53,649 nucleotides of DNA from Defluviitaleaceae bacterium (GTDB taxonomy: Bacteria > Bacillota > Clostridia > Lachnospirales > WRAX01). Of the stretch, positions 10,572 through 50,510 are shown one piece after another; position 1 is the first letter of the stretch, and every line of letters starts with the position of its first letter. The DNA lies in NCBI GenBank assembly GCA_009781625.1, contig WQVI01000001.1, forward strand, positions 1-53,649. The letters run 5' to 3'. The position numbers were made by a program, and so were the translations under genes. The notes below the pieces were generated by a model, which searched no databases, was not told the DNA's origin, and saw nothing but the letters and a program-made list of their open reading frames with translations.

Positions 10572-10595
10572 GTAGGGGCGAACTGCGTTCGCCCG
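10572..10595 (+). repeat. REP hairpin, type 1 (GTAGGGGCGAAC-N-GTTCGCCCG)
   Basis: gtaggggcgaactgcgttcgcccg lies between rpmG and secE. It is the same motif as the copies around RAYT-1. Confidence 0.8.
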
Positions 10596-35283: not shown

Positions 35284-35312
35284 TTGACAATTAAGCCCTG
35301 GTGAGATACAAT
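35284..35312 (+). promoter_or_regulatory. Strong sigma-A type promoter whose -10 box sits in a palindrome
   Basis: TTGACA, 17-nt spacer, TACAAT. The inverted repeat GGTGAGA-tacaatat-TCTCAC spans the -10. Confidence 0.55.
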
Positions 35313-35531: not shown

Positions 35532-35936
35532 ATGAGCGAAAAAGCAATGATAAGGCTGCGCATGGGCCAAAATGATGCCCATTATGCAGGAAATTTGGTG
35601 GACGGTGCGCGTATGCTGGCACTTTTCGGCGATGTGGCTACAGAGCTTCTGATACGCCACGATGGCGACGAGGGGCTGTTTGTGGCCTATGATGCTGTGG
35701 AATTTCTGGCCCCTGTCTACGCGGGGGACTATATCGAGGCTACGGGCCATATCGTCCATGTGGGCAATTCTTCCCGTAAAATGGCCTTTGAGGCCCGCAA
35801 AGTGATAGCACCGGCACCCCACGCGGGCGTTACCGCCGCCGATGTGCTGCCACAGCCCATCGTGGTGTGCCGCGCCAGCGGAACATGCGTGGTGCCTAAA
35901 GATAAACAACGTTTCAGAGGTGAAGCCAATGGATAA
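35532..35936 (+). CDS. kal: 3-aminobutyryl-CoA ammonia-lyase (hotdog fold)
   Basis: [35 protein letters not shown] matches remembered Kal sequences. Lysine-fermentation gene context. Confidence 0.8.
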
Positions 35937-36750
35937 ATTAATTATAACAGCGGCTATTAGCGGCGCAGAAGTGACGAAAAACCATAACCCCGCCGTACCC
36001 TACACCGTGGCAGAGATAGGCCGCGAGGCAAAATCCGCCTATGATGCGGGCGCGGCCATCATCCATCTCCATGTGCGCCATGACGACGGCACACCAACCC
36101 AAGACGCCGCCCGCTATGCAGAATGTATCGCGGAAATTAAGCGTCTGTGCCCCGATGTGATAATACAGCCGTCAACAGGCGGTGCCGTAGGCATGAGCAA
36201 CGCCGAGCGTATGCAACCCCTAACCCTGCGCCCGGAGATGGCCACGCTGGACTGCGGCACCGTAAACTTCGGCGGCGATGACATCTTTGTAAACACCGAA
36301 AACACGATAAAAGAATTTGGCACGCAGATGATAGAGCTTGGCGTAAAGCCCGAGGTGGAAGTTTTTGACAAGGGGATGATAGACACCGCCATACGCCTGG
36401 CAAAACAAGGCTTCATCCAAACCCCCATGCATTTTAACTTTGTGATGGGCGTAACAGGCGGCATAGCAGCCACCACGCGGGATTTTGCCTATCTGGCCGA
36501 CAGCATCCCCGCCGGCAGCACCTTCACCGCCACAGGCATAGGCCGACACGAATTTCCAATGGCGACGCTGGCCATCATAGCGGGCGGCCATGCGCGCGTA
36601 GGCTTTGAGGACAATATCTATCTATCCCGCAGCGTGCTGGCAAAATCTAATGGCGAGCTTGTGGATAAGGTGGTGCGCATAGCCACAGAGCTTGGCCGCG
36701 AAATTGCGACACCCACAGAGGCGCGGGCCATTTTGGGCCTAAACCATTAG
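35929..36750 (+). CDS. kce: 3-keto-5-aminohexanoate cleavage enzyme (BKACE/DUF849)
   Basis: [17 protein letters not shown]...AAIIHLHVR. The ATG overlaps the kal stop. Confidence 0.85.
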
Positions 36751-36781
36751 AAATTTCGACAAATATCATACCTGCACAACC

Positions 36782-37732
36782 CTTGATCATCTTGAACACC
36801 CTTCTATAAACGCCGGTATCATCGGCTTTAGAAAGATGCTCATAGGGTGTTCAATGAGCATCCTTGTCTGTGTTATAAAAAAATCACTGGATTGCTTCGG
36901 ACTTGTAATGACATTTCAACTGCCACGGACATCCAGTTAGCAACGTAACGTCCAACTGTCATTGCGAGGCCAATGGTGGTTGAAAGGCCAATACAGTACA
37001 GGGCCGAAGCAATCCAGCTTACGTCAACATCAAAATTTATACTCATCGGCTAACTGGATTGCTTCGGACTTGTGCTGCATCATAATTCAACCATCGTAGT
37101 CCTCGCAATGACAATTGAACTATCACGGACATCCCTATAACAACGCAACGTCCAACTGTCATTGCGAGGCCAATGGTGGTTGAAAGGCCAATACAGTACA
37201 GGGCCGAAGCAATCCAGCTTACGTCAACATCAAAATTTATACTCATCGGCTATCTGGATTGCTTCGGACTTGTACTTCATCATAATTCAACTGTCGTAGT
37301 CCTCGCAATGACAATTGAACTATCACGGACATCCCTATAACAACGCAACGTCCAACCGTCATTGCGAGGCCAATGGTGGTTGAAAAGCCAGTGCAGTACA
37401 AGGCCGAAGCAATCCAGCTTACGTCAACATCAAAATTTACACACATCGGCTATCTGGATTGCTTCGGACTTGCACCGCATCATAATTCAACTGCCATAGT
37501 CCTCGCAATGACATTTCAACTGCCGCGGACATCCGGTAGCAACACAACCGTCCAACTGTCATTGCAAGGCCAACGGAAGTTGAAAAGCCAGTGTAGCACA
37601 GGGCCGAAGCAATCCAGCAACACATATCCATACAATTATTACACAGAGAAGGATGCTCATTGAACACCCCTTGAACATCTTTCTAAACCCCATGATACCG
37701 GCGTTTATAGAAGGGTGTTCAAGATGATCAAG
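36782..37732. repeat. 951-bp composite element: ~82-97-bp outer inverted repeats enclosing four tandem ~200-bp hairpin units
   Basis: 36782-36863 is the reverse complement of 37651-37732. Units begin with CTGGATTGCTTCGGAC at 36887, 37054, 37254 and 37454, and each ends with GGCCGAAGCAATCCAG. Confidence 0.9.
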
Positions 37733-37783
37733 AATTGTACCGGCGTAATACTTTCAAGCTAAAGATATAAGGAGATAAAGGTT

Positions 37784-38821
37784 ATGGAGAAAAAACTTTG
37801 CAAATACGGTACCAACAGGGTGATAGCGCCCCAGGGCGTGCTGCCCCAGGCGGCCCAGAAAATTGACAATGATATGACCATCCATGAAAACGAAATTTTA
37901 ATTGACGTTATCTCGCTTAATGTCGATTCTGCCTCGTTTACACAGCTTCGCGGTGAGGCAGGCGACGATGAGGGCAAGATAGCCGCCAAAATTATGGAAA
38001 TTGTGGCAGAACGTGGCAAGATGCAAAACCCCGTAACGGGCAGCGGCGGCATGTTAATTGGCCGCGTGGCGCAAATAGGCGCGGCTCTTACAGGGCGCGA
38101 TATACAGGTTGGCGACAAGATAGCCACGCTGGTTTCCCTATCGTTAACACCGCTAAAAATCAATAAAATCAACGCCATCCAGATGAATATAGATAGGGTG
38201 GACGTGGATGCACAGGCCATCCTCTTTGAAACAGGCATATACGCCAAGCTGCCCGAAGATATGAGCGAAGCCCTGGCCCTGGCCGCCCTGGACGTGGCCG
38301 GTGCCCCCGCCCAAACCGCCAAACTGGCGCGCCCGGGTGACGCCGTGCTTGTTTTAGGCGCAGGGGGAAAGTCCGGCATGATGTGCTGCTTTGAGGCCAT
38401 GCGCCGCGTTGGCCCAACGGGCAATGTCGTGGGCATGGTGCGTAGCCAAGCTGACCGTGAAAAGCTGATGGCTAACGGGCTATGCCACGACGTTATCGTA
38501 TCTGATGTAACCCAGGCCCTAGATGTGCTGGAAAAAGTGCTTGCCGCCAACAATGGGCGCGAATTTGATATTAGCATCAACTGCGTAAATGTCCCCAACA
38601 GCGAAATGGCCAGCATCCTGCCCGTGCGCGATGGCGGCACGGTGTATTTCTTCTCCATGGCCGTTAGCTTTACAAAAGCCGCGCTGGGCGCGGAAGGCGT
38701 TGGCAAGGATGTTAACATGATAGTGGGCAATGGCTACACCCGCGGCCATGCGGAAATTACACTGGCACAGCTGCGAGAAAGTGCCGCGCTACGTCAGATT
38801 TTTGAGGAAAAATATGTGTGA
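37784..38821 (+). CDS. kdd: L-erythro-3,5-diaminohexanoate dehydrogenase
   Basis: 345 aa. N-terminus KYGTNRVIAPQGVLPQAA..., NPVTGSGGML and a GAGGKSG Rossmann motif. Pathway context. Confidence 0.8.
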   Translation: MEKKLCKYGTNRVIAPQGVLPQAAQKIDNDMTIHENEILIDVISLNVDSASFTQLRGEAGDDEGKIAAKIMEIVAERGKMQNPVTGSGGMLIGRVAQIGAALTGRDIQVGDKIATLVSLSLTPLKINKINAIQMNIDRVDVDAQAILFETGIYAKLPEDMSEALALAALDVAGAPAQTAKLARPGDAVLVLGAGGKSGMMCCFEAMRRVGPTGNVVGMVRSQADREKLMANGLCHDVIVSDVTQALDVLEKVLAANNGREFDISINCVNVPNSEMASILPVRDGGTVYFFSMAVSFTKAALGAEGVGKDVNMIVGNGYTRGHAEITLAQLRESAALRQIFEEKYV

Positions 38822-38831
38822 TAATGATGCC

Positions 38832-39341
38832 ATGACGCCGCATACGGGCGAACACAGTTCGCCCCTACGAAGGCGCAAAGCAAACCGTTTAAAAGATTAC
38901 GACTATAGCCAAGCAGGTGCGTATTTTGTGACGATATGCACAAAAGACCATGCCCATTTATTTGGAAGCATCAGTAGGGGCGAACTGTGTTCGCCCGTAT
39001 GCCAAACGCATCTGTCACCAATTGGAGAAATTGTCGAATCTGAAATAGAAAAGCTTTCAGCAACTTATGATATGGCCTATGTCAATCTCTATGTCATCAT
39101 GCCAAATCATGTCCATATGATAATCGTTATTCGACATAATAACGGGCGAACACAGTTCGCCCCTACGTTGTCGCGCATCATAAAGCAATGGAAAGGGGCA
39201 ATAACAAAAAGAATTGGCCGCCCTATCTGGCAAAAATCCTTTTACGACCGTATAATCCGCAATGAAGGCGACTATCTTCGCATTGCCGAATATATAGAAA
39301 CCAACCCGGCCAAATGGCAAGAAGACGAATACTATTCGTAG
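38832..39341 (+). CDS. REP-associated tyrosine transposase (RAYT, IS200-like HUH/Y1), copy 1
   Basis: YFVTICT, HUH motif MPNHVHMII, WQKSFYDRIIRN and EYIETNP. Three type-1 REP hairpins lie in frame (38844-68, 38974-98, 39142-66) and a fourth spans the stop. The start could also be ATG 38814. Confidence 0.8.
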   Translation: MTPHTGEHSSPLRRRKANRLKDYDYSQAGAYFVTICTKDHAHLFGSISRGELCSPVCQTHLSPIGEIVESEIEKLSATYDMAYVNLYVIMPNHVHMIIVIRHNNGRTQFAPTLSRIIKQWKGAITKRIGRPIWQKSFYDRIIRNEGDYLRIAEYIETNPAKWQEDEYYS

Positions 39342-39362
39342 GGGCGAACTGCGTTCGCCCGT
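39338..39362 (+). repeat. REP hairpin type 1, overlapping the RAYT-1 stop codon
   Basis: gtaggggcgaactgcgttcgcccgt. Confidence 0.85.
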
Positions 39363-39397
39363 AACTGCGCATCCAATCAACAACAAAGGAGACCCCC

Positions 39398-40639
39398 ATG
39401 AAAAACAACATCTTCAAAAACATCCCCGCCGAAAATTGGAACAACTGGCAGTGGCATTTGCGCAATAAAATTGAGACGGTGGAAGATTTGAAAAAACTTT
39501 GTGACATCAGCGCAGCCGATGAAGTGGGCATTGCGCGCTGTCTTGAAACTTTTCGCATGGCCATCACGCCTCATTATTTTTCGCTGATAGATTTGCATGA
39601 CGAGCGCGACCCCGTGCGTGCCCAATGTGTGCCCAGCGTCTATGAAACCCATTTTGCCGGTGAAGATTTGGAAGACCCCCTGCATGAGGACGAGGATAGC
39701 CCGGCACCGGGCCTAACCCACCGCTATCCGGACCGTGCATTGCTTTTGGTAACGGACCAATGCGCCATGTATTGCCGCTTTTGCACCCGGCGGCGTTTTG
39801 CGGGACAAAAGGATGGCGCGCTGCCTATATCACAGGTGGATGCGGCCATAGACTATATCGAAAAGACGCCCGCCATCCGCGATGTGCTGCTATCCGGCGG
39901 CGATGCCATGCTGCTGCCTGATGATGCGCTAGAGCATATCCTAAAACGCCTGCGGGCCATACCCCATGTGGAGATAATCCGCTTTGGCTCGCGCCTGCCC
40001 GTGGTTTTGCCCCAACGCATCACGGATGAGCTATGCAACTTGCTGAAAAAATATCATCCCATCTGGGTTAACACCCATTTTAACCATCCGGCGGAAATTT
40101 CCCAGGCATCCATCGAAGCTTGCGAAAAGCTGGCAAATGCGGGCATACCCCTAGGCAACCAATCTGTGCTTCTGGCAGGTGTAAATGATTGCGTTCATGT
40201 CATGAAGCAGCTTGTCCAGCAGCTGGTAAAAATACGCGTGCGCCCATACTATTTGTATCAATGCGACCTTTCGCTGGGCCTGTCCCATTTCCGCACGCCT
40301 GTGGCCAAAGGTATCGAGATTATCGAAGGCCTGCGCGGTCACACCTCGGGCTATGCCGTGCCCACCTTCGTTGTAGACGCGCCCGGCGGCGGCGGCAAGA
40401 TACCCGTCATGCCTAACTATGTGGTGTCCCACGGCACACACAAGGTCATCCTGCGCAACTACGAAGGCGTCATCACCACATATACCGAGCCTGAAACCTA
40501 CCAACATACCTGCAACTGCCCTGTGTGCCGCGGAGATGAAAAGGCACAATATGAGGGACTTGCAGCGTTGATGAACAACCAAAAGCTGGCGATAGAGCCG
40601 GCAGATTTGGCCCGGCGCAGGAGGAAACATAATGGGTAA
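39398..40639 (+). CDS. kamA: Lysine 2,3-aminomutase (radical SAM)
   Basis: CAMYCRFCTRRR (CxxxCxxC), LLSGGDAMLL and a C-terminal Cys cluster CNCPVC. Confidence 0.92.
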   Translation: MKNNIFKNIPAENWNNWQWHLRNKIETVEDLKKLCDISAADEVGIARCLETFRMAITPHYFSLIDLHDERDPVRAQCVPSVYETHFAGEDLEDPLHEDEDSPAPGLTHRYPDRALLLVTDQCAMYCRFCTRRRFAGQKDGALPISQVDAAIDYIEKTPAIRDVLLSGGDAMLLPDDALEHILKRLRAIPHVEIIRFGSRLPVVLPQRITDELCNLLKKYHPIWVNTHFNHPAEISQASIEACEKLANAGIPLGNQSVLLAGVNDCVHVMKQLVQQLVKIRVRPYYLYQCDLSLGLSHFRTPVAKGIEIIEGLRGHTSGYAVPTFVVDAPGGGGKIPVMPNYVVSHGTHKVILRNYEGVITTYTEPETYQHTCNCPVCRGDEKAQYEGLAALMNNQKLAIEPADLARRRRKHNG

Positions 40640-41171
40640 TGCGCCTTCTCGTAAGCCTAACCGCTTGGAAAATCACGACTATGCACAGCCTGGCACATAT
40701 TTTATCACAATATGCTCTAAAGGCCACCAGCAACTGTTTGGCACAATTGCCTTGGGGAGCGGGCGGCAAAATGCCGCCCCTACAAGCCTCATGAAGTTGT
40801 CGCCCATAGGAAGGATAGTTGAAGCAGAAATAATGCGGCTATCCCGCACCTATGAAGGGGTTTATGTAGACTGTTATGTCGTTATGCCAAACCATGTTCA
40901 TATGATCATCGTCATCCGCAACATCCACGGGCGGCAAGATGCCTCCCCTACGATATCCCAGATGATGAATCAATGGAAAAGGGCAGCTTCTATAAAAGCA
41001 GGCTCATCTATTTGGCAAAAATCCTTTCATGACCATATAATACGCAACCAGGTTAGATATAACCTCATTGTTCAATATATAGCATGTAATCCAGAAATTT
41101 GGGAGAAGGACATTTATTTCATGGGGCCTGGACGTCCTTACATCGCCCCTTCGGACCGCCCCATTTTGTAG
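40632..41171 (+). CDS. REP-associated tyrosine transposase (RAYT), copy 2
   Basis: YFITICS, MPNHVHMII, WQKSFHDHIIRN and QYIACNP. The ATG overlaps the kamA 3' end by 8 nt. Type-2 REP hairpins lie in frame at 40759-83 and 40927-51. Confidence 0.8.
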   Translation: MGNAPSRKPNRLENHDYAQPGTYFITICSKGHQQLFGTIALGSGRQNAAPTSLMKLSPIGRIVEAEIMRLSRTYEGVYVDCYVVMPNHVHMIIVIRNIHGRQDASPTISQMMNQWKRAASIKAGSSIWQKSFHDHIIRNQVRYNLIVQYIACNPEIWEKDIYFMGPGRPYIAPSDRPIL

Positions 41172-41270
41172 GGGCGGCTTGTAGCCGCCCGTGGATAGTT
41201 AAATTTTACGTAGCATCGGAATTGCTGCTATAGACGTTGTATACCGTAGGGGCGGCTTGTAGCCGCCCGT
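41168..41270 (+). repeat. Two direct REP type-2 hairpins (41168-41192 and 41246-41270)
   Basis: Both read gtaggggcggcttgtagccgcccgt. The first overlaps the RAYT-2 stop codon. Confidence 0.85.
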
Positions 41271-41295
41271 AAACCAAAGCAAGGAGCTGATTACA

Positions 41296-42849
41296 ATCAA
41301 CCCCAAACTAAACCTAAGCCAGCACCAAATAGACCAATGCCGCAGCCACGCCAAAAACATCGCTGCTGATATGCAAAACTTCATCGCTCAGCACACCACC
41401 GTTGCCACAGAGCGCACGGTTTGCCGCCTACTGGGCATTGACGGCGTGGACGACATCGGCGTGCCCATGCCCAATGTGGTAGTGGCCCATCTGGCTGAAA
41501 ACCACCTGCTGGGCGCAGGAGCCGCCTTGATGCTGGGCAATGCCATGGCGCATCTTGGCAAAAGTCCGCAAAAAATCGCTGAGGGCATCAGCAGTGGTCA
41601 GATTCATTTGTCAAAAATACCTATGGGCGATGTGGCCGTAATCACCCAGGCCATAAACACCACTGCGGTCCAGTCCGTGGAGAAAATCCGCGCAAACCGC
41701 ATGGCCCGTGAGGATTTTTTGGCCCAACATCCGGATAGACAGGCGCCGCTGCTTTATGTCATCGTTGCCACAGGCAATATTTACGAGGACATAACACAGG
41801 CCCAAGCCGCCGTGGCTCAAGGTGCCGACATCATCGCCGTCATCCGCACCACAGGCCAAAGCCTGCTGGACTATGTGCCCTACGGCGCCACCACAGAGGG
41901 TTTTGGCGGCACCTACGCCACCCAAGAAAACTTTCGCCTGATGCGCGCCGCCCTTGACGAGGCGGGCCACGCAGCGGGCCGCTACATCCGCCTTTGCAAC
42001 TACGCCAGCGGCCTATGTATGCCCGAAATTGCCGCCATGGGCGCGTTAGAGCGTCTTGACGTAATGCTTAACGATGCCCTTTACGGCATACTTTTTCGTG
42101 ACATCAACATGAAGCGCACCATGATAGACCAATACTTTTCCCGCGTCATTAACGGCTTTGCGGGTATTATCATCAACACGGGCGAGGACAACTACCTTAC
42201 CACGGCGGATGCGGTAGAGGAAGCGCATACCGTTCTTACCAGTCAGTTTCTTAATGAGCAATTCGCACTTCTGGCGGGCCTTCCTGAAGAGCAAATGGGC
42301 CTTGGCCACGCTTTTGAAATTGCCCCCGACGTAAAAAACGGCTTTTTATACGAAATTGCCCAAGCCCAGATGGCCCGCGAGATTTTTCCCACAGCACCAC
42401 TAAAATACATGCCGCCTACAAAGTTTATGACAGGCGACATCTTTATGGGTACCGTACAAAACGCGCTGTTTAACGCCGCCACCGTGATGACGGGGCAAAA
42501 AATCCATCTTTTGGGAATGCTGACAGAAGCCATACACACGCCGTTTATGTCAGACCGCGCCCAAGCGCTGGATTCTGCTGGCTACATCGCCCATACCATG
42601 GCCGACATGGCCAATGAAATAGAATTTAAGCAAGACGGCATCATACAGCAGCGCGCCGCAGAGGTGCTGGACAAAGCCTGTGGCCTTCTGGCCACAATAG
42701 AGCAAAATAAGCTTTTTGCCACGCTAGAACAAGGCATCTTCGCGGGCATAAAGCGCGGCCGCGATGCAGGCAAGGGCCTAGATGGCGTTGTCCTCAAGGC
42801 CGAGGGTTATTTCAACCCATTTATTGACATGATGTTAGCGGGAGATTAA
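41296..42849 (+). CDS. kamD: Beta-lysine/D-lysine 5,6-aminomutase alpha subunit
   Basis: HTTVATERTVCRLLGIDGVD...LLYVIVATGNIYEDITQA...GATTEGFGGTYATQENFRLMR closely matches remembered KamD. The first ATG is at 41371, but homology (KLNLSQ...) continues upstream to an SD-positioned ATC at 41296, so the start is uncertain. Confidence 0.85.
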   Translation: MNPKLNLSQHQIDQCRSHAKNIAADMQNFIAQHTTVATERTVCRLLGIDGVDDIGVPMPNVVVAHLAENHLLGAGAALMLGNAMAHLGKSPQKIAEGISSGQIHLSKIPMGDVAVITQAINTTAVQSVEKIRANRMAREDFLAQHPDRQAPLLYVIVATGNIYEDITQAQAAVAQGADIIAVIRTTGQSLLDYVPYGATTEGFGGTYATQENFRLMRAALDEAGHAAGRYIRLCNYASGLCMPEIAAMGALERLDVMLNDALYGILFRDINMKRTMIDQYFSRVINGFAGIIINTGEDNYLTTADAVEEAHTVLTSQFLNEQFALLAGLPEEQMGLGHAFEIAPDVKNGFLYEIAQAQMAREIFPTAPLKYMPPTKFMTGDIFMGTVQNALFNAATVMTGQKIHLLGMLTEAIHTPFMSDRAQALDSAGYIAHTMADMANEIEFKQDGIIQQRAAEVLDKACGLLATIEQNKLFATLEQGIFAGIKRGRDAGKGLDGVVLKAEGYFNPFIDMMLAGD

Positions 42850-42912: not shown

Positions 42913-42937
42913 GTAGGGGCGAACTGTGTTCGCCCGT
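42913..42937 (+). repeat. REP hairpin type 1 between kamD and the GNAT gene
   Basis: gtaggggcgaactgtgttcgcccgt. Confidence 0.85.
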
Positions 42938-43387
42938 GTCCAAAGACGCACTGCAAAGGGGGAAACCAAAATAATCGAAATATTAAAGCCGGAAGACCTG
43001 GCATCATATAAAAATCTAATTGACGAATGCTTTGGCTCAAGCAACCATCTAGACAAATACAGAAAATACAGCGAAAATCAGGCATACACCATTTTCGTCA
43101 TCAAAGACGGAGACGATGTTATCGGAAGCGTCACCCAATACACCATAGACCTTTTCACTTTTCGCTTCCAGCCTTGCCTAATGGTTTTCAACGTGGCCGT
43201 AAAGCCCAGCCATCGCGGCCAAAAAATTGCGCAAAGGCTGCTACAGCATGTTATAGAAAATGCAAAGGAAGATGGCTATGGCTCTGTTTCCTTAACCTGC
43301 CTTGACGATGCATATTCGGCACATAATCTATATGAAAACCTGGGCTTCAAAAAGGCAGGCAGCGTAAAATATGATTTGTATTTTTAA
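42926..43387 (+). CDS. GNAT family N-acetyltransferase
   Basis: VAVKPSHRGQKIAQRLLQHVIENAKEDGY and NLYENLGFKK motifs. The only canonical start is GTG 42926, inside the REP. The alternative is ATA/ATC at 42971-76, behind the SD aaggggga. Confidence 0.7.
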   Translation: MFARVQRRTAKGETKIIEILKPEDLASYKNLIDECFGSSNHLDKYRKYSENQAYTIFVIKDGDDVIGSVTQYTIDLFTFRFQPCLMVFNVAVKPSHRGQKIAQRLLQHVIENAKEDGYGSVSLTCLDDAYSAHNLYENLGFKKAGSVKYDLYF

Positions 43388-43399
43388 TGGGGGACCCTA

Positions 43400-43780
43400 A
43401 TGTTTGGCATTAATTACAAATATCTCGCGGCGGCTGTAGTCCTCTTTATAGCCATGGTTATAATCGCCTTATTTTTCCAAGGCGGCTTTTTAAGAAATCA
43501 TTTCGGCGACATTCTCGTTGTAATGTTTATTGTCTGCACCATCCGCTCCATCATAAGGCCCAGGATGAAATGGCTGTGTCTAGCAGTCTTCATCTTCGCC
43601 ACTTTGGTGGAAATTGGCCAATACTTTGATCTGGTGGGCCTTCTGGGCCTTACCGGAAATGCCCTGGCCGAGACAATTATAGGCACCACCTTCGACCCTT
43701 GGGACATTTTGATGTACGCCATAGGTTGCCTCATTATGTATGTAATTGAAAGATGCAGAGACAGGAGGTACCAAATATGA
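43400..43780 (+). CDS. DUF2809 family membrane protein
   Basis: FLRNHFGDILVVMF...LVEIGQYF...GTTFDPWDILMYAIG resembles the DUF2809 pattern. Confidence 0.6.
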   Translation: MFGINYKYLAAAVVLFIAMVIIALFFQGGFLRNHFGDILVVMFIVCTIRSIIRPRMKWLCLAVFIFATLVEIGQYFDLVGLLGLTGNALAETIIGTTFDPWDILMYAIGCLIMYVIERCRDRRYQI

Positions 43781-44520
43781 ACGACCAAAACCACATCCGC
43801 CCCTATGGCGACACGATAGACGATGGCAAGGTGCAGCTTTCCTTCACCCTGCCCGTGTCCAATGACGCAAAGGGCCGCGAGGCCGCCAAAATTATGGCCA
43901 AAAAGATGGGCATGACAGACCCCGCCGTGGCACATAGCGCAGCACTTGACGCGGGCTTTAGCTTCTATGTCGTTTACGGCTCTGTGGCCCATAGCGTGGA
44001 CTATGCCGCAATACAAGTTGCGGCCCCCGTGGCGCAAGCCATGGACATGGACGAGGTGGCGCAATACATCCGCGACCATATAGGCCGCAAGGTAGTCATT
44101 ATCGGTGCGTCAACAGGCACCGACGCGCATACCGTGGGCATCGACGCCGTCATGAACATGAAAGGCTTTGCGGGCCACTACGGCCTGGAGCGTTACGACA
44201 TGATAGAGGCCCACAATCTGGGCAGCCAGGTAAGCAACGAGGACTTTATCGCAAAGGCGGTAGAGCTTAACGCCGATGTGCTGCTGGTAAGCCAAACCGT
44301 GACGCAAAAGGATGTCCATATTGATAACCTCACCCAGCTAGTAGAGATATTGGAAGCCGAAGGTCTGCGCCACAAAATCATCTTAATTTGCGGCGGCGCC
44401 CGCATAACGGCAGAGCTGGCAAAAGAACTAGGCTACGATGCGGGCTTTGGCAAGGACAGCTATGCGAAGGATGTAGCCACCTTTGCCGTGCAGGAAATGG
44501 CGCGGCGCGGGGTGAAATAA
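43777..44520 (+). CDS. kamE: Beta-lysine/D-lysine 5,6-aminomutase beta subunit (B12-binding)
   Basis: IRPYGDTIDDGKVQLSFTLP...GASTGTDAHTVGID...LLVSQTVTQKDVH matches remembered KamE. SD is aggagg, and ATGA overlaps the previous stop. Confidence 0.9.
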   Translation: MNDQNHIRPYGDTIDDGKVQLSFTLPVSNDAKGREAAKIMAKKMGMTDPAVAHSAALDAGFSFYVVYGSVAHSVDYAAIQVAAPVAQAMDMDEVAQYIRDHIGRKVVIIGASTGTDAHTVGIDAVMNMKGFAGHYGLERYDMIEAHNLGSQVSNEDFIAKAVELNADVLLVSQTVTQKDVHIDNLTQLVEILEAEGLRHKIILICGGARITAELAKELGYDAGFGKDSYAKDVATFAVQEMARRGVK

Positions 44521-44527
44521 TACAAAA

Positions 44528-44549
44528 ATGCCGCCTAGCTTGGCGGCAT
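44528..44549. terminator. Bidirectional terminator between kamE and the convergent thioesterase gene
   Basis: atgccgcc-tagctt-ggcggcat, flanked by an A-run and a T-run. Confidence 0.75.
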
Positions 44550-50411: not shown

Positions 50412-50510
50412 ACGGGCGGCAAAATGCCGCCCCTACTACGAACTTTTGCATCTCCTTGCAGGGCAAGGTTTTATCGGGACGGCTTGTAGGGGCGGCATTT
50501 TGCCGCCCGT
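50412..50510. repeat. Convergent REP type-2 doublet (50412-50436 inverted, 50486-50510 forward)
   Basis: acgggcggcaaaatgccgcccctac and gtaggggcggcattttgccgcccgt are exact reverse complements of each other. Confidence 0.85.

Follow-up and report, generated by a model that had tools for sequence, protein, structure and literature searches.

Co-varying REP hairpins inside two RAYT genes set in consecutive junctions of a clostridial lysine-fermentation operon

The window analysed here is a stretch of 53,649 nucleotides (nt) of contig WQVI01000001.1 from a Defluviitaleaceae bacterium (GCA_009781625.1), covering only about 53 kb of that genome. It carries the lysine-fermentation genes kal-kce-kdd-kamA-kamD-kamE and, in two consecutive junctions of this operon, two genes of the RAYT (TnpA-REP) family associated with repetitive extragenic palindromic (REP) hairpins: RAYT-1 between kdd and kamA, and RAYT-2 between kamA and kamD. 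The best explanation of the locus, which we regard as likely, is that the two genes are compact REPtrons carrying cognate REP pairs within their own coding sequences, RAYT-2 being a long-standing resident of its junction and RAYT-1 a separate addition. The co-varying in-gene REP pair, together with the series of orthologs at one operon junction, is the most interesting content of the analysis.

The in-gene REPs were examined across the family. The sample consisted of 80 genomic loci, most of them from Oscillospiraceae, Acutalibacteraceae, Ruminococcaceae and other metagenome-assembled genomes of Clostridia, in which, together with the window, 54 RAYT genes were recognised. A GTAG hairpin about 123 nt before the MPNH codons (site 1) was present in 42 of the 54 genes, in the + orientation in 40, and another, 36–80 nt past the start of the MPNH codons (site 2), was present in 50, in the - orientation in 48. 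Both sites were occupied in 41/54 genes and thereby formed an inverted pair around the segment coding for the HUH core. The 7-nt stems of sites 1 and 2 were identical in 29 of these 41 genes, whereas 10,000 permutation trials gave 3.2 on average and 10 at most; 17 stem types were represented.

Site 2 was also extracted through a peptide anchor alone, so that its selection was independent of the presence of a hairpin. In this set, 94% of cells were paired and compensatory changes were found in 6/8 pairs; the covariation score was 0.544 versus 0.158 in shuffles, a value reached by 0 of 500. The peptides encoded by the two sites differed among genes: site 1 DNA was read as VGANCVRP or RGELCSP, and site 2 DNA as GRxxxAPT or GGxGxPPLQ. 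Since the same DNA is read in different frames across genes, the hairpin, not the peptide, is the conserved entity. Site 2 aligned with the native loop that follows the HUH strand of E. coli TnpA-REP, with no extra residues, and in the AlphaFold model site 1 corresponded to a beta-hairpin turn (residues 54–62) and site 2 to a loop (residues 107–118).

Within 1 kb of the gene, the in-gene stem was shared by 24 of 42 hairpins. Stems switched on both arms and often at both sites together, suggesting that in-gene hairpins were probably replaced by copying from other REPs. They would thus be members of the REP population, kept matched by copy-replacement and not by stepwise mutation. Tandem in-frame repeats of the REP-coded peptide were observed in L045 and L080 (site 2 region) and in L077 (site 1); duplicated REP peptides inside RAYTs included MDNGRQIAAPT in two copies and (T)GPSGTPAPTRE in three. 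These tandem duplications indicate that in-gene REPs can amplify in frame.

REPs inside RAYT genes are, as such, already published. They were described for TnpA-REP subclass 2.4 (Quentin et al. 2018, PMC6006769), which is RAYT Group 4 of Bertels et al. (2017, PMC5581495), as lying within the tnpA-REP gene, mostly between HuH and Tyr, with the frame kept and probably neutral (PMC6006769). REPs of this subclass have three G-C pairs at the stem foot after GT[AG]G, for example GTAGGGGCGTAC...GTACGCCC in Table S1 (PMC6006769). Judged by sequence features only, both genes of the window appear to fall in a large and mostly clostridial branch with the characteristics of subclass 2.4. Shared with it are the GTAG+GGG REPs with an 8/3/8 architecture as in the examples tabulated by Quentin et al., the in-frame REPs within the gene, a short conserved N-terminal motif and a patchy taxonomic distribution. 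In contrast, subclass 2.4 was described mainly from Cyanobacteria and Bacteroidetes and has variable insertions between HuH and Tyr, with a median spacing of 88 amino acids versus 61 here, where site 2 lies in the native loop. Its description holds no fixed site before HuH, no inverted-pair geometry, no co-variation of sites, no alternative frames and no operon embedding. Our literature search likewise returned no account of a fixed second REP site before HuH, of the inverted-pair geometry, of co-variation or of alternative frames, and for this clostridial family or a co-varying in-gene REP pair it found only the general statement on subclass 2.4.

The window contained 12 hairpins of the form GTAG + 8-bp stem + 3-nt loop, all beginning with GTAGGGG, and 5 of the 12 fell inside the two RAYT coding sequences (Table 1). 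Two types were distinguished. Type A (stem GGGCGAAC), cognate to RAYT-1, gave 6 matches versus 0 expected by chance, and type B (stem GGGCGGCA or GGGCGGCT), cognate to RAYT-2, gave 7 versus 0.34. RAYT-1 had REPs on both flanks and was bounded by a 29-nt type A inverted repeat (38843–38871 / 39335–39363), whereas the REPs of RAYT-2 were only intragenic and 3'. Dispersed copies of types A and B were found outside both genes at 10572, 42913, 22996 and 50412–50510. Since REPs flank the genes, the genes are REPtrons, each a compact one with its own REP family. Folded as single-stranded DNA, REPtron-1 formed nested stems from the outer inverted repeat and from its two in-gene sites (z = -10.6), and the latter can pair as a 25-bp perfect stem. 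The dispersed copies at 50412–50510 are an inverted, REPIN-like type B pair, 49 nt apart with the GTAG feet inward, at or just within the 5' end of a minus-strand open reading frame (ORF).

Both RAYT ORFs were full length and in sense to the operon, in agreement with the initial annotation, which had reported two diverged RAYT genes in consecutive junctions. Their proteins were 52% identical over 157 residues, and they were the only two RAYT copies within the window. The frame of RAYT-1 was open across 38730–39341, and the ORF scan agreed with the earlier candidate starts: ATG 38814 (ATGTGTGA) overlaps the kdd stop codon (TGA, 38819–38821) by 8 nt, and ATG 38832 lies 10 nt past it. The overlap of the RAYT-2 ATG with the last 8 nt of kamA (ATGGGTAA) was equally confirmed, and an AGGAGG lies 6 nt upstream of this ATG. 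Both stop codons are the TAG within the GTAG foot of each gene's 3' REP. The motifs named in the initial annotation are retained: MPNHVHMII is common to both proteins, and the C-terminal YI..NP reads EYIETNP in RAYT-1 and QYIACNP in RAYT-2. RAYT-1 has the HUH residues H99/H101, the catalytic-type tyrosine Y160 and WQ....DR..R at 139–149; RAYT-2 has a 16-residue C-terminal tail. The public gene call of RAYT-1 (P0001, 137 aa) begins at the internal GTG 38929 (4585 of L161), a truncation that drops the conserved N-terminal motif RK.NRL..YDY.

Judged from sequence and structure modelling, membership of both genes in the RAYT/TnpA-REP family appears real, with an assignment that is weak by standard models. 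A profile built from 33 homologs matched E. coli TnpA-REP (PDB 4ER8) with E=5.6e-11, and the RAYT AlphaFold model (mean predicted local distance difference test score 83.7) matched 4ER8 best in structure, with IS200/IS605 transposases next. RAYT-1 H99-V-H101, Y160 and N164-P165 and their RAYT-2 equivalents were invariant among the 33 homologs, and the catalytic residues aligned with H59/H61, Y115 and N119 of 4ER8. W139, Q140, D145, R/H146 and R149 were spaced identically to W94, Q95, E100, H101 and R104 of the E. coli protein, which contact the GTAG tetranucleotide (PMC6006769). From this homology, both proteins are predicted to be HUH/Y1 nucleases that would bind, cut and rejoin single-stranded GTAG-REP hairpins, like E. 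coli TnpA-REP. At E<=1e-5 the family numbered 4486 proteins in the database. Neither gene callers nor standard family models handle the RAYT genes here properly, as seen in the truncated start and the sub-threshold scores.

We compared the kdd-kamA-kamD junctions in related genomes, a comparison that the initial annotation had proposed. An exact-sequence look-up gave no record for kamA or RAYT-2; P0001 led to a strain, L161, that was 99.5% identical to the window over about 5 kb and had both RAYT genes. Its RAYT-1 was unchanged, and its RAYT-2 differed by one synonymous change and a T>G restoring a perfect site-2 hairpin. RAYT homologs between kamA and kamD were found in four other lineages: P0002 (L162–L164), P0047 (L165), P0008 (L168) and P0122 (L169). 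The 8-nt kamA/RAYT overlap (ATGnnTAA) was present in L162, L165, L168 and L169 and is homologous to that of the window; its sequence is ATGGGTAA in the window and L169, ATGGATAA in L162 and L168, and ATGAGTAA in L165. The N-termini of the junction RAYTs shared the pattern M-(G/D/S)-N-x-P-x-R-K-x-N-R-L, and the proteins of L162, L165, L168 and L169 were 59–65% identical to RAYT-2 with the catalytic residues intact. REP offsets of about +129, +297, +535 and +643 were kept at the kamA-kamD RAYTs except in L162, which had three REPs at +118, +288 and +480 and an oppositely oriented site 1. At these orthologous loci the stems varied among lineages, and sometimes among positions, and the site 1 and site 2 hairpins were perfect except for window site 2, which has one mismatch.

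In a neighbour-joining tree, RAYT-2 clustered with P0047, P0008 and P0122 in 152/200 bootstraps. Because its nearest homologs share homologous kamA/RAYT/kamD junctions, RAYT-2 is, as far as sequence comparison can tell, an old, long-retained resident of the kamA-kamD junction that was passed on with the operon, and not a fresh insertion. RAYT-1 was added separately, at the kdd-kamA junction, and was seen only in the window lineage (window and L161). Its grouping as duplicate or sister of RAYT-2 was obtained in 0/200 bootstraps, so the two are not recent paralogs, and a sister relationship of RAYT-1 to the L162 junction gene P0002 likewise appeared in 0/200. No near-identical copy of either RAYT was found in the protein database, the best non-self matches being 67% and 65%.

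No RAYT was present at the kdd-kamA and kamA-kamD junctions of L081, L082, L084, L096 and L097. The closest kamA (84% identity) was that of L081, with the layout kdd, 13 nt, kamA, 22 nt, kamD; the empty junctions of L081 and L082 measured about 13–22 nt. GTAG REPs were sought in the RAYT-less operons L081, L082 and L084 and none were found, and REP hairpins as insertion targets were rejected on this ground. The initial annotation had proposed either domestication or repeated targeting of hairpins in this operon. Persistence of a domestication-like kind was found for RAYT-2 only, in the junction and 8-nt overlap kept in four other lineages, and targeting of hairpins found no support in the short, REP-free junctions.

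The arrangement had also been called unusual, and this did not hold within the family. In 17 of 48 scorable family genes, the start overlaps the stop codon of an upstream ORF in the same orientation or lies at most 30 nt from it, and 20 of 45 genes are flanked by two co-oriented neighbours. The upstream neighbour was co-oriented in 35/48 genes, about what is expected for any gene in these genomes, so orientation alone is uninformative. Genomes with several tnpA-REP genes, each paired with a REP family of its own, are already documented (PMC6006769). Operon embedding is unusual relative to the textbook RAYTs of E. coli and Pseudomonas and not unusual within this clostridial family. One further embedded gene, P0004 (L166 3831–6881), lies between an hsdR-like type I restriction gene and hsdS, separated from each by 3 nt; it is 57–62% identical to the window RAYTs, and its C-terminal tail reads through two REPs.

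Within the window sequence, no promoter-like site was found upstream of the RAYT-1 or RAYT-2 start, which bears out the earlier statement that neither gene has a recognisable promoter of its own, and no T-run terminator was found behind either gene on the + strand. Lacking both a promoter of their own and a downstream terminator, the two genes would be transcribed by read-through from the operon promoter. Translation could start at the ATGnnTRA overlap by termination-reinitiation or by Shine-Dalgarno-led initiation, and the RAYT level would be expected to follow operon induction. A dependence of RAYT expression on upstream read-through transcripts was suggested by Di Nocera et al. (PMC3733652). 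Promoter-like matches facing downstream (CTGGCA/TTGGCA-18-TATAAT) were noted inside the 3' parts of both genes (39227–39256 and 41012–41041), at the codons for WQKSF..D(H/R)II. An internal outward promoter was rejected: the motif largely follows protein constraints, and the match is probably a coding by-product because exact TATAAT occurs in only 8/59 relatives.

Several observations weigh against this interpretation of the locus. By the criteria used here, site 1 is missing in 12/54 relatives and site 2 in 4/54, so the in-gene hairpins are not obligatory. Among the 64 hairpins lying more than 1 kb away from the gene, only 5 have the same stem as the in-gene copies. The stems of sites 1 and 2 differ by 1–2 bp in L168 and L169, and homogenisation is therefore incomplete. 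Standard family models score both RAYTs at or under their cut-offs: Pfam Y1_Tnp (PF01797) gave RAYT-1 23.2 bits against a cut-off of 23 and did not match RAYT-2, and NCBIfam REP_Tyr_transpos (NF047646) gave 65 and 55 bits, under its 80-bit cut-off, these models being built on other subclasses. The predicted read-through and coupling are deduced from gene geometry. The RAYT phylogeny is poorly resolved, with a star-like neighbour-joining tree, and P0002, from the L162 junction, falls within the junction clade in only 26/200 bootstraps. Finally, residues 1–250 of kamA are 82–88% identical to L081 (69% in the first 50) and 55–72% to L162 and L165, while the last 65 kamA residues, as well as kamD and kamE, resemble those of L162 and L165 more closely. 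This mosaic pattern suggests a recombination break inside kamA, beside the RAYT-2 junction, and the operon segment bearing RAYT-2 may therefore have moved by recombination; with such a kamA, vertical descent of RAYT-2 and transfer of the operon segment would look alike.

Alternative explanations were weighed against the two-REPtron interpretation. Both genes could be recent, selfish REPtron insertions resembling insertion sequences, with the sense orientation and the lack of terminators being merely what selection tolerates in an essential operon. For the pair this is possible and somewhat doubtful. RAYT-1 occurs only in the window and L161, related operons up to the closest-kamA L081 have short empty junctions, family members sit in many unrelated contexts, and subclass 2.4 is described as patchily distributed; against this, RAYT-2 has positional orthologs in four lineages whose proteins are only 59–65% identical with intact catalytic residues, and near-identical database copies were absent (best non-self 67% and 65%). 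For RAYT-1 a recent insertion remains a viable explanation. Decay of both genes into pseudogenes, an outcome that the initial annotation had named, is very improbable. The weak Pfam and NCBIfam scores and, in RAYT-2, the 16-residue tail and the one stem mismatch would fit it, but the ORFs are full length, all catalytic and GTAG-contact residues are kept, the structure model is confident, and in the second strain RAYT-1 is unchanged and RAYT-2 nearly so.

The in-gene hairpins, in turn, might be neutral REP insertions in tolerant loops, or simply reflect a conserved peptide GRxxxAPT, with no structural role in DNA or RNA. Quentin et al. view such insertions as peripheral and probably harmless (PMC6006769), both sites fall in loops of the AlphaFold model, and the sites are missing in some relatives. 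However, site 2 occupies a loop that E. coli TnpA-REP also has and is thus no insertion, the positions stay the same among proteins of 35–65% identity, stems show compensatory changes, alternative frames give unrelated peptides (VGANCVRP versus RGELCSP; GRxxxAPT versus GGxGxPPLQ), and ortholog site 1 and site 2 hairpins are all perfect despite differing stems, save window site 2. We therefore consider neutrality an alternative to be kept in mind and not the expected one. A host role in lysine fermentation, in which the RAYTs or the REP hairpins in the mRNA were co-opted, for example for the stability or translation of an operon segment, is improbable, the more so as many kam operons, including that of L081, work without a RAYT, the family shows no preference for the lysine pathway, and HUH/Y1 chemistry has no tie to lysine metabolism. 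Conservation of junction, overlap and REP positions in five lineages would agree with co-option, as would the homologous kamD start being ATA or ATC instead of ATG in RAYT-bearing lineages and the L162 RAYT stop overlapping a GTG ahead of kamD.

Among known systems, E. coli TnpA-REP (RAYT, YafM; 4ER8) shares the HUH/Y1 fold, the H-u-H, Tyr and Asn residues and the GTAG-contact residues W-Q...(E/D)-H...R, and the E. coli REPtron likewise places the gene between inverted GTAG-REP hairpins and has a cognate dispersed REP family. Identity to the E. coli protein is only 22%, however, and the REPs of the window, with an 8-bp stem and a 3-nt loop, are short, perfect and free of bulges. E. coli TnpA-REP stands alone, whereas the window RAYTs carry REPs inside the coding sequence and are embedded in, and overlap with, a catabolic operon. 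IS200/IS605 TnpA proteins (IS608, ISDra2), the next-best structural matches, share the fold and the recognition of single-strand hairpins, there at element ends; they differ in that no near-identical multi-copy elements were found for the window RAYTs (best non-self 67%, 65%), whose GTAG-REP system, WQ motif and extended N-terminal motif are RAYT-typical. As in REPINs (Bertels & Rainey), an inverted pair of REPs can fold into a long hairpin, here the 25-bp perfect stem of RAYT-1; unlike in REPINs, the 143-nt spacer encodes the enzyme's own HUH core and the GTAG feet face outward.

A further and rather unlikely reading, offered tentatively, goes beyond the two-REPtron interpretation. The inverted in-gene pair would be a functional cis-element that makes the RAYT gene REPIN-like, with a loop encoding the HUH core. 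Such a pair would tie the enzyme physically to its substrate, allow it to act on the gene or mRNA that encodes it, or to regulate either, and drive concerted stem switching. The enzyme of one clade would, in addition, have become wired into a catabolic operon by the start/stop overlap. If true, REP activity would follow lysine fermentation. The locus bears on the role that RAYTs play in their hosts, on the way in which their genes come to be expressed and on the continued match between an enzyme and its REPs. It offers a RAYT whose expression should switch with a defined catabolic operon, and orthologs at one site whose hairpins, in and beside the gene, changed stems yet stayed hairpins, a natural record of enzyme-substrate co-evolution.

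Table 1. Features of the operon, the RAYT genes and the REP hairpins, in window positions.
Feature	Positions	Strand	Remarks
Candidate operon promoter TTGACA-17-TACAAT	35284-35312	+	Upstream of kal; consensus match only, 11/12
kal	35532-35936	+	ORF and family match
kce	35842-36750	+	ORF and family match
kdd, L-erythro-3,5-diaminohexanoate dehydrogenase	37784-38821	+	NCBIfam Lys_ferment_KDD, 265 bits
RAYT-1 coding sequence	38814-39341	+	Start ATG 38814 or ATG 38832; kdd-kamA junction
REP type A (GGGCGAAC stem), left outer REP of REPtron-1	38844-38868	-	Within RAYT-1 N-terminal codons
REP type A, RAYT-1 in-gene site 1	38974-38998	+	Codes RGELCSPV; perfect; 100% complementary inverted-repeat partners
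REP type A, RAYT-1 in-gene site 2	39142-39166	-	Codes GRTQFAPT; perfect; just past HUH strand
REP type A, right outer REP of REPtron-1	39338-39362	+	GTAG supplies RAYT-1 stop codon
kamA, lysine 2,3-aminomutase	39398-40639	+	TIGR03820, 613 bits; Pfam LAM_C, Radical_SAM
RAYT-2 coding sequence	40632-41171	+	kamA-kamD junction
REP type B (GGGCGGCA stem), RAYT-2 in-gene site 1	40761-40783	-	Codes GRQNAAPT; family-minority orientation
REP type B, RAYT-2 in-gene site 2	40927-40951	-	Codes GRQDASPT; one stem mismatch; perfect in L161
REP type B variant (GGGCGGCT stem), first 3' REP of REPtron-2	41168-41192	+	Position conserved in orthologs
REP type B variant, second 3' REP of REPtron-2	41246-41270	+	Just upstream of kamD ribosome-binding site
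kamD, lysine 5,6-aminomutase alpha subunit	41296-42849	+	Homologous start position ATC 41296; first ATG 41371
Dispersed REP type A	42913-42937	+	kamD/GNAT junction; 100% complementary to 39142-39167
kamE	43753-44520	+	ORF and family match
Terminator-like hairpin with T run	44528-44549	+	After kamE; likely operon end

All six lysine-fermentation genes are on the + strand and gave strong family matches, the pathway domains matched being BKACE, KDD, LAM, Lys-AminoMut_A and OAM_dimer+B12 (Pfam/NCBIfam). The gene order kal-kce-kdd-kamA-kamD-kamE was identical in L081, L084 and L096. Where the RAYT-less L081 has an ATG as the kamD start codon (L081 5262), the window has ATC (41296) and L162 and L165 have ATA (regions compared: window 41287–41373, L162 5519–5605, L165 4735–4820). 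Starting kamD at 41371, the first ATG of the window, would leave out about 25 conserved residues at the N-terminus. The TGA stop codon of the L162 RAYT overlaps a GTG just upstream of kamD (GTGA).

Between kamD and kamE, the window carries sense-oriented genes for a GNAT acetyltransferase and a DUF2809 membrane protein (42913–43780). This insert has a type A REP at its left edge, the DUF2809 stop overlaps the kamE start, and the insert was not present in L081, L084, L096 and L097. Between kce and kdd lies an element of about 1 kb (36761–37753), the 118-nt inverted arms of which are 87% complementary and enclose 3.6 copies of a 200-bp tandem repeat whose units contain internal inverted repeats (GTCATTGCGAGG / CCTCGCAATGAC). 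An Rfam scan of the whole window, this element included, gave no match. L161 departs from the window inside this tandem-repeat array and has unrelated genes upstream of the point matching window position 37059.

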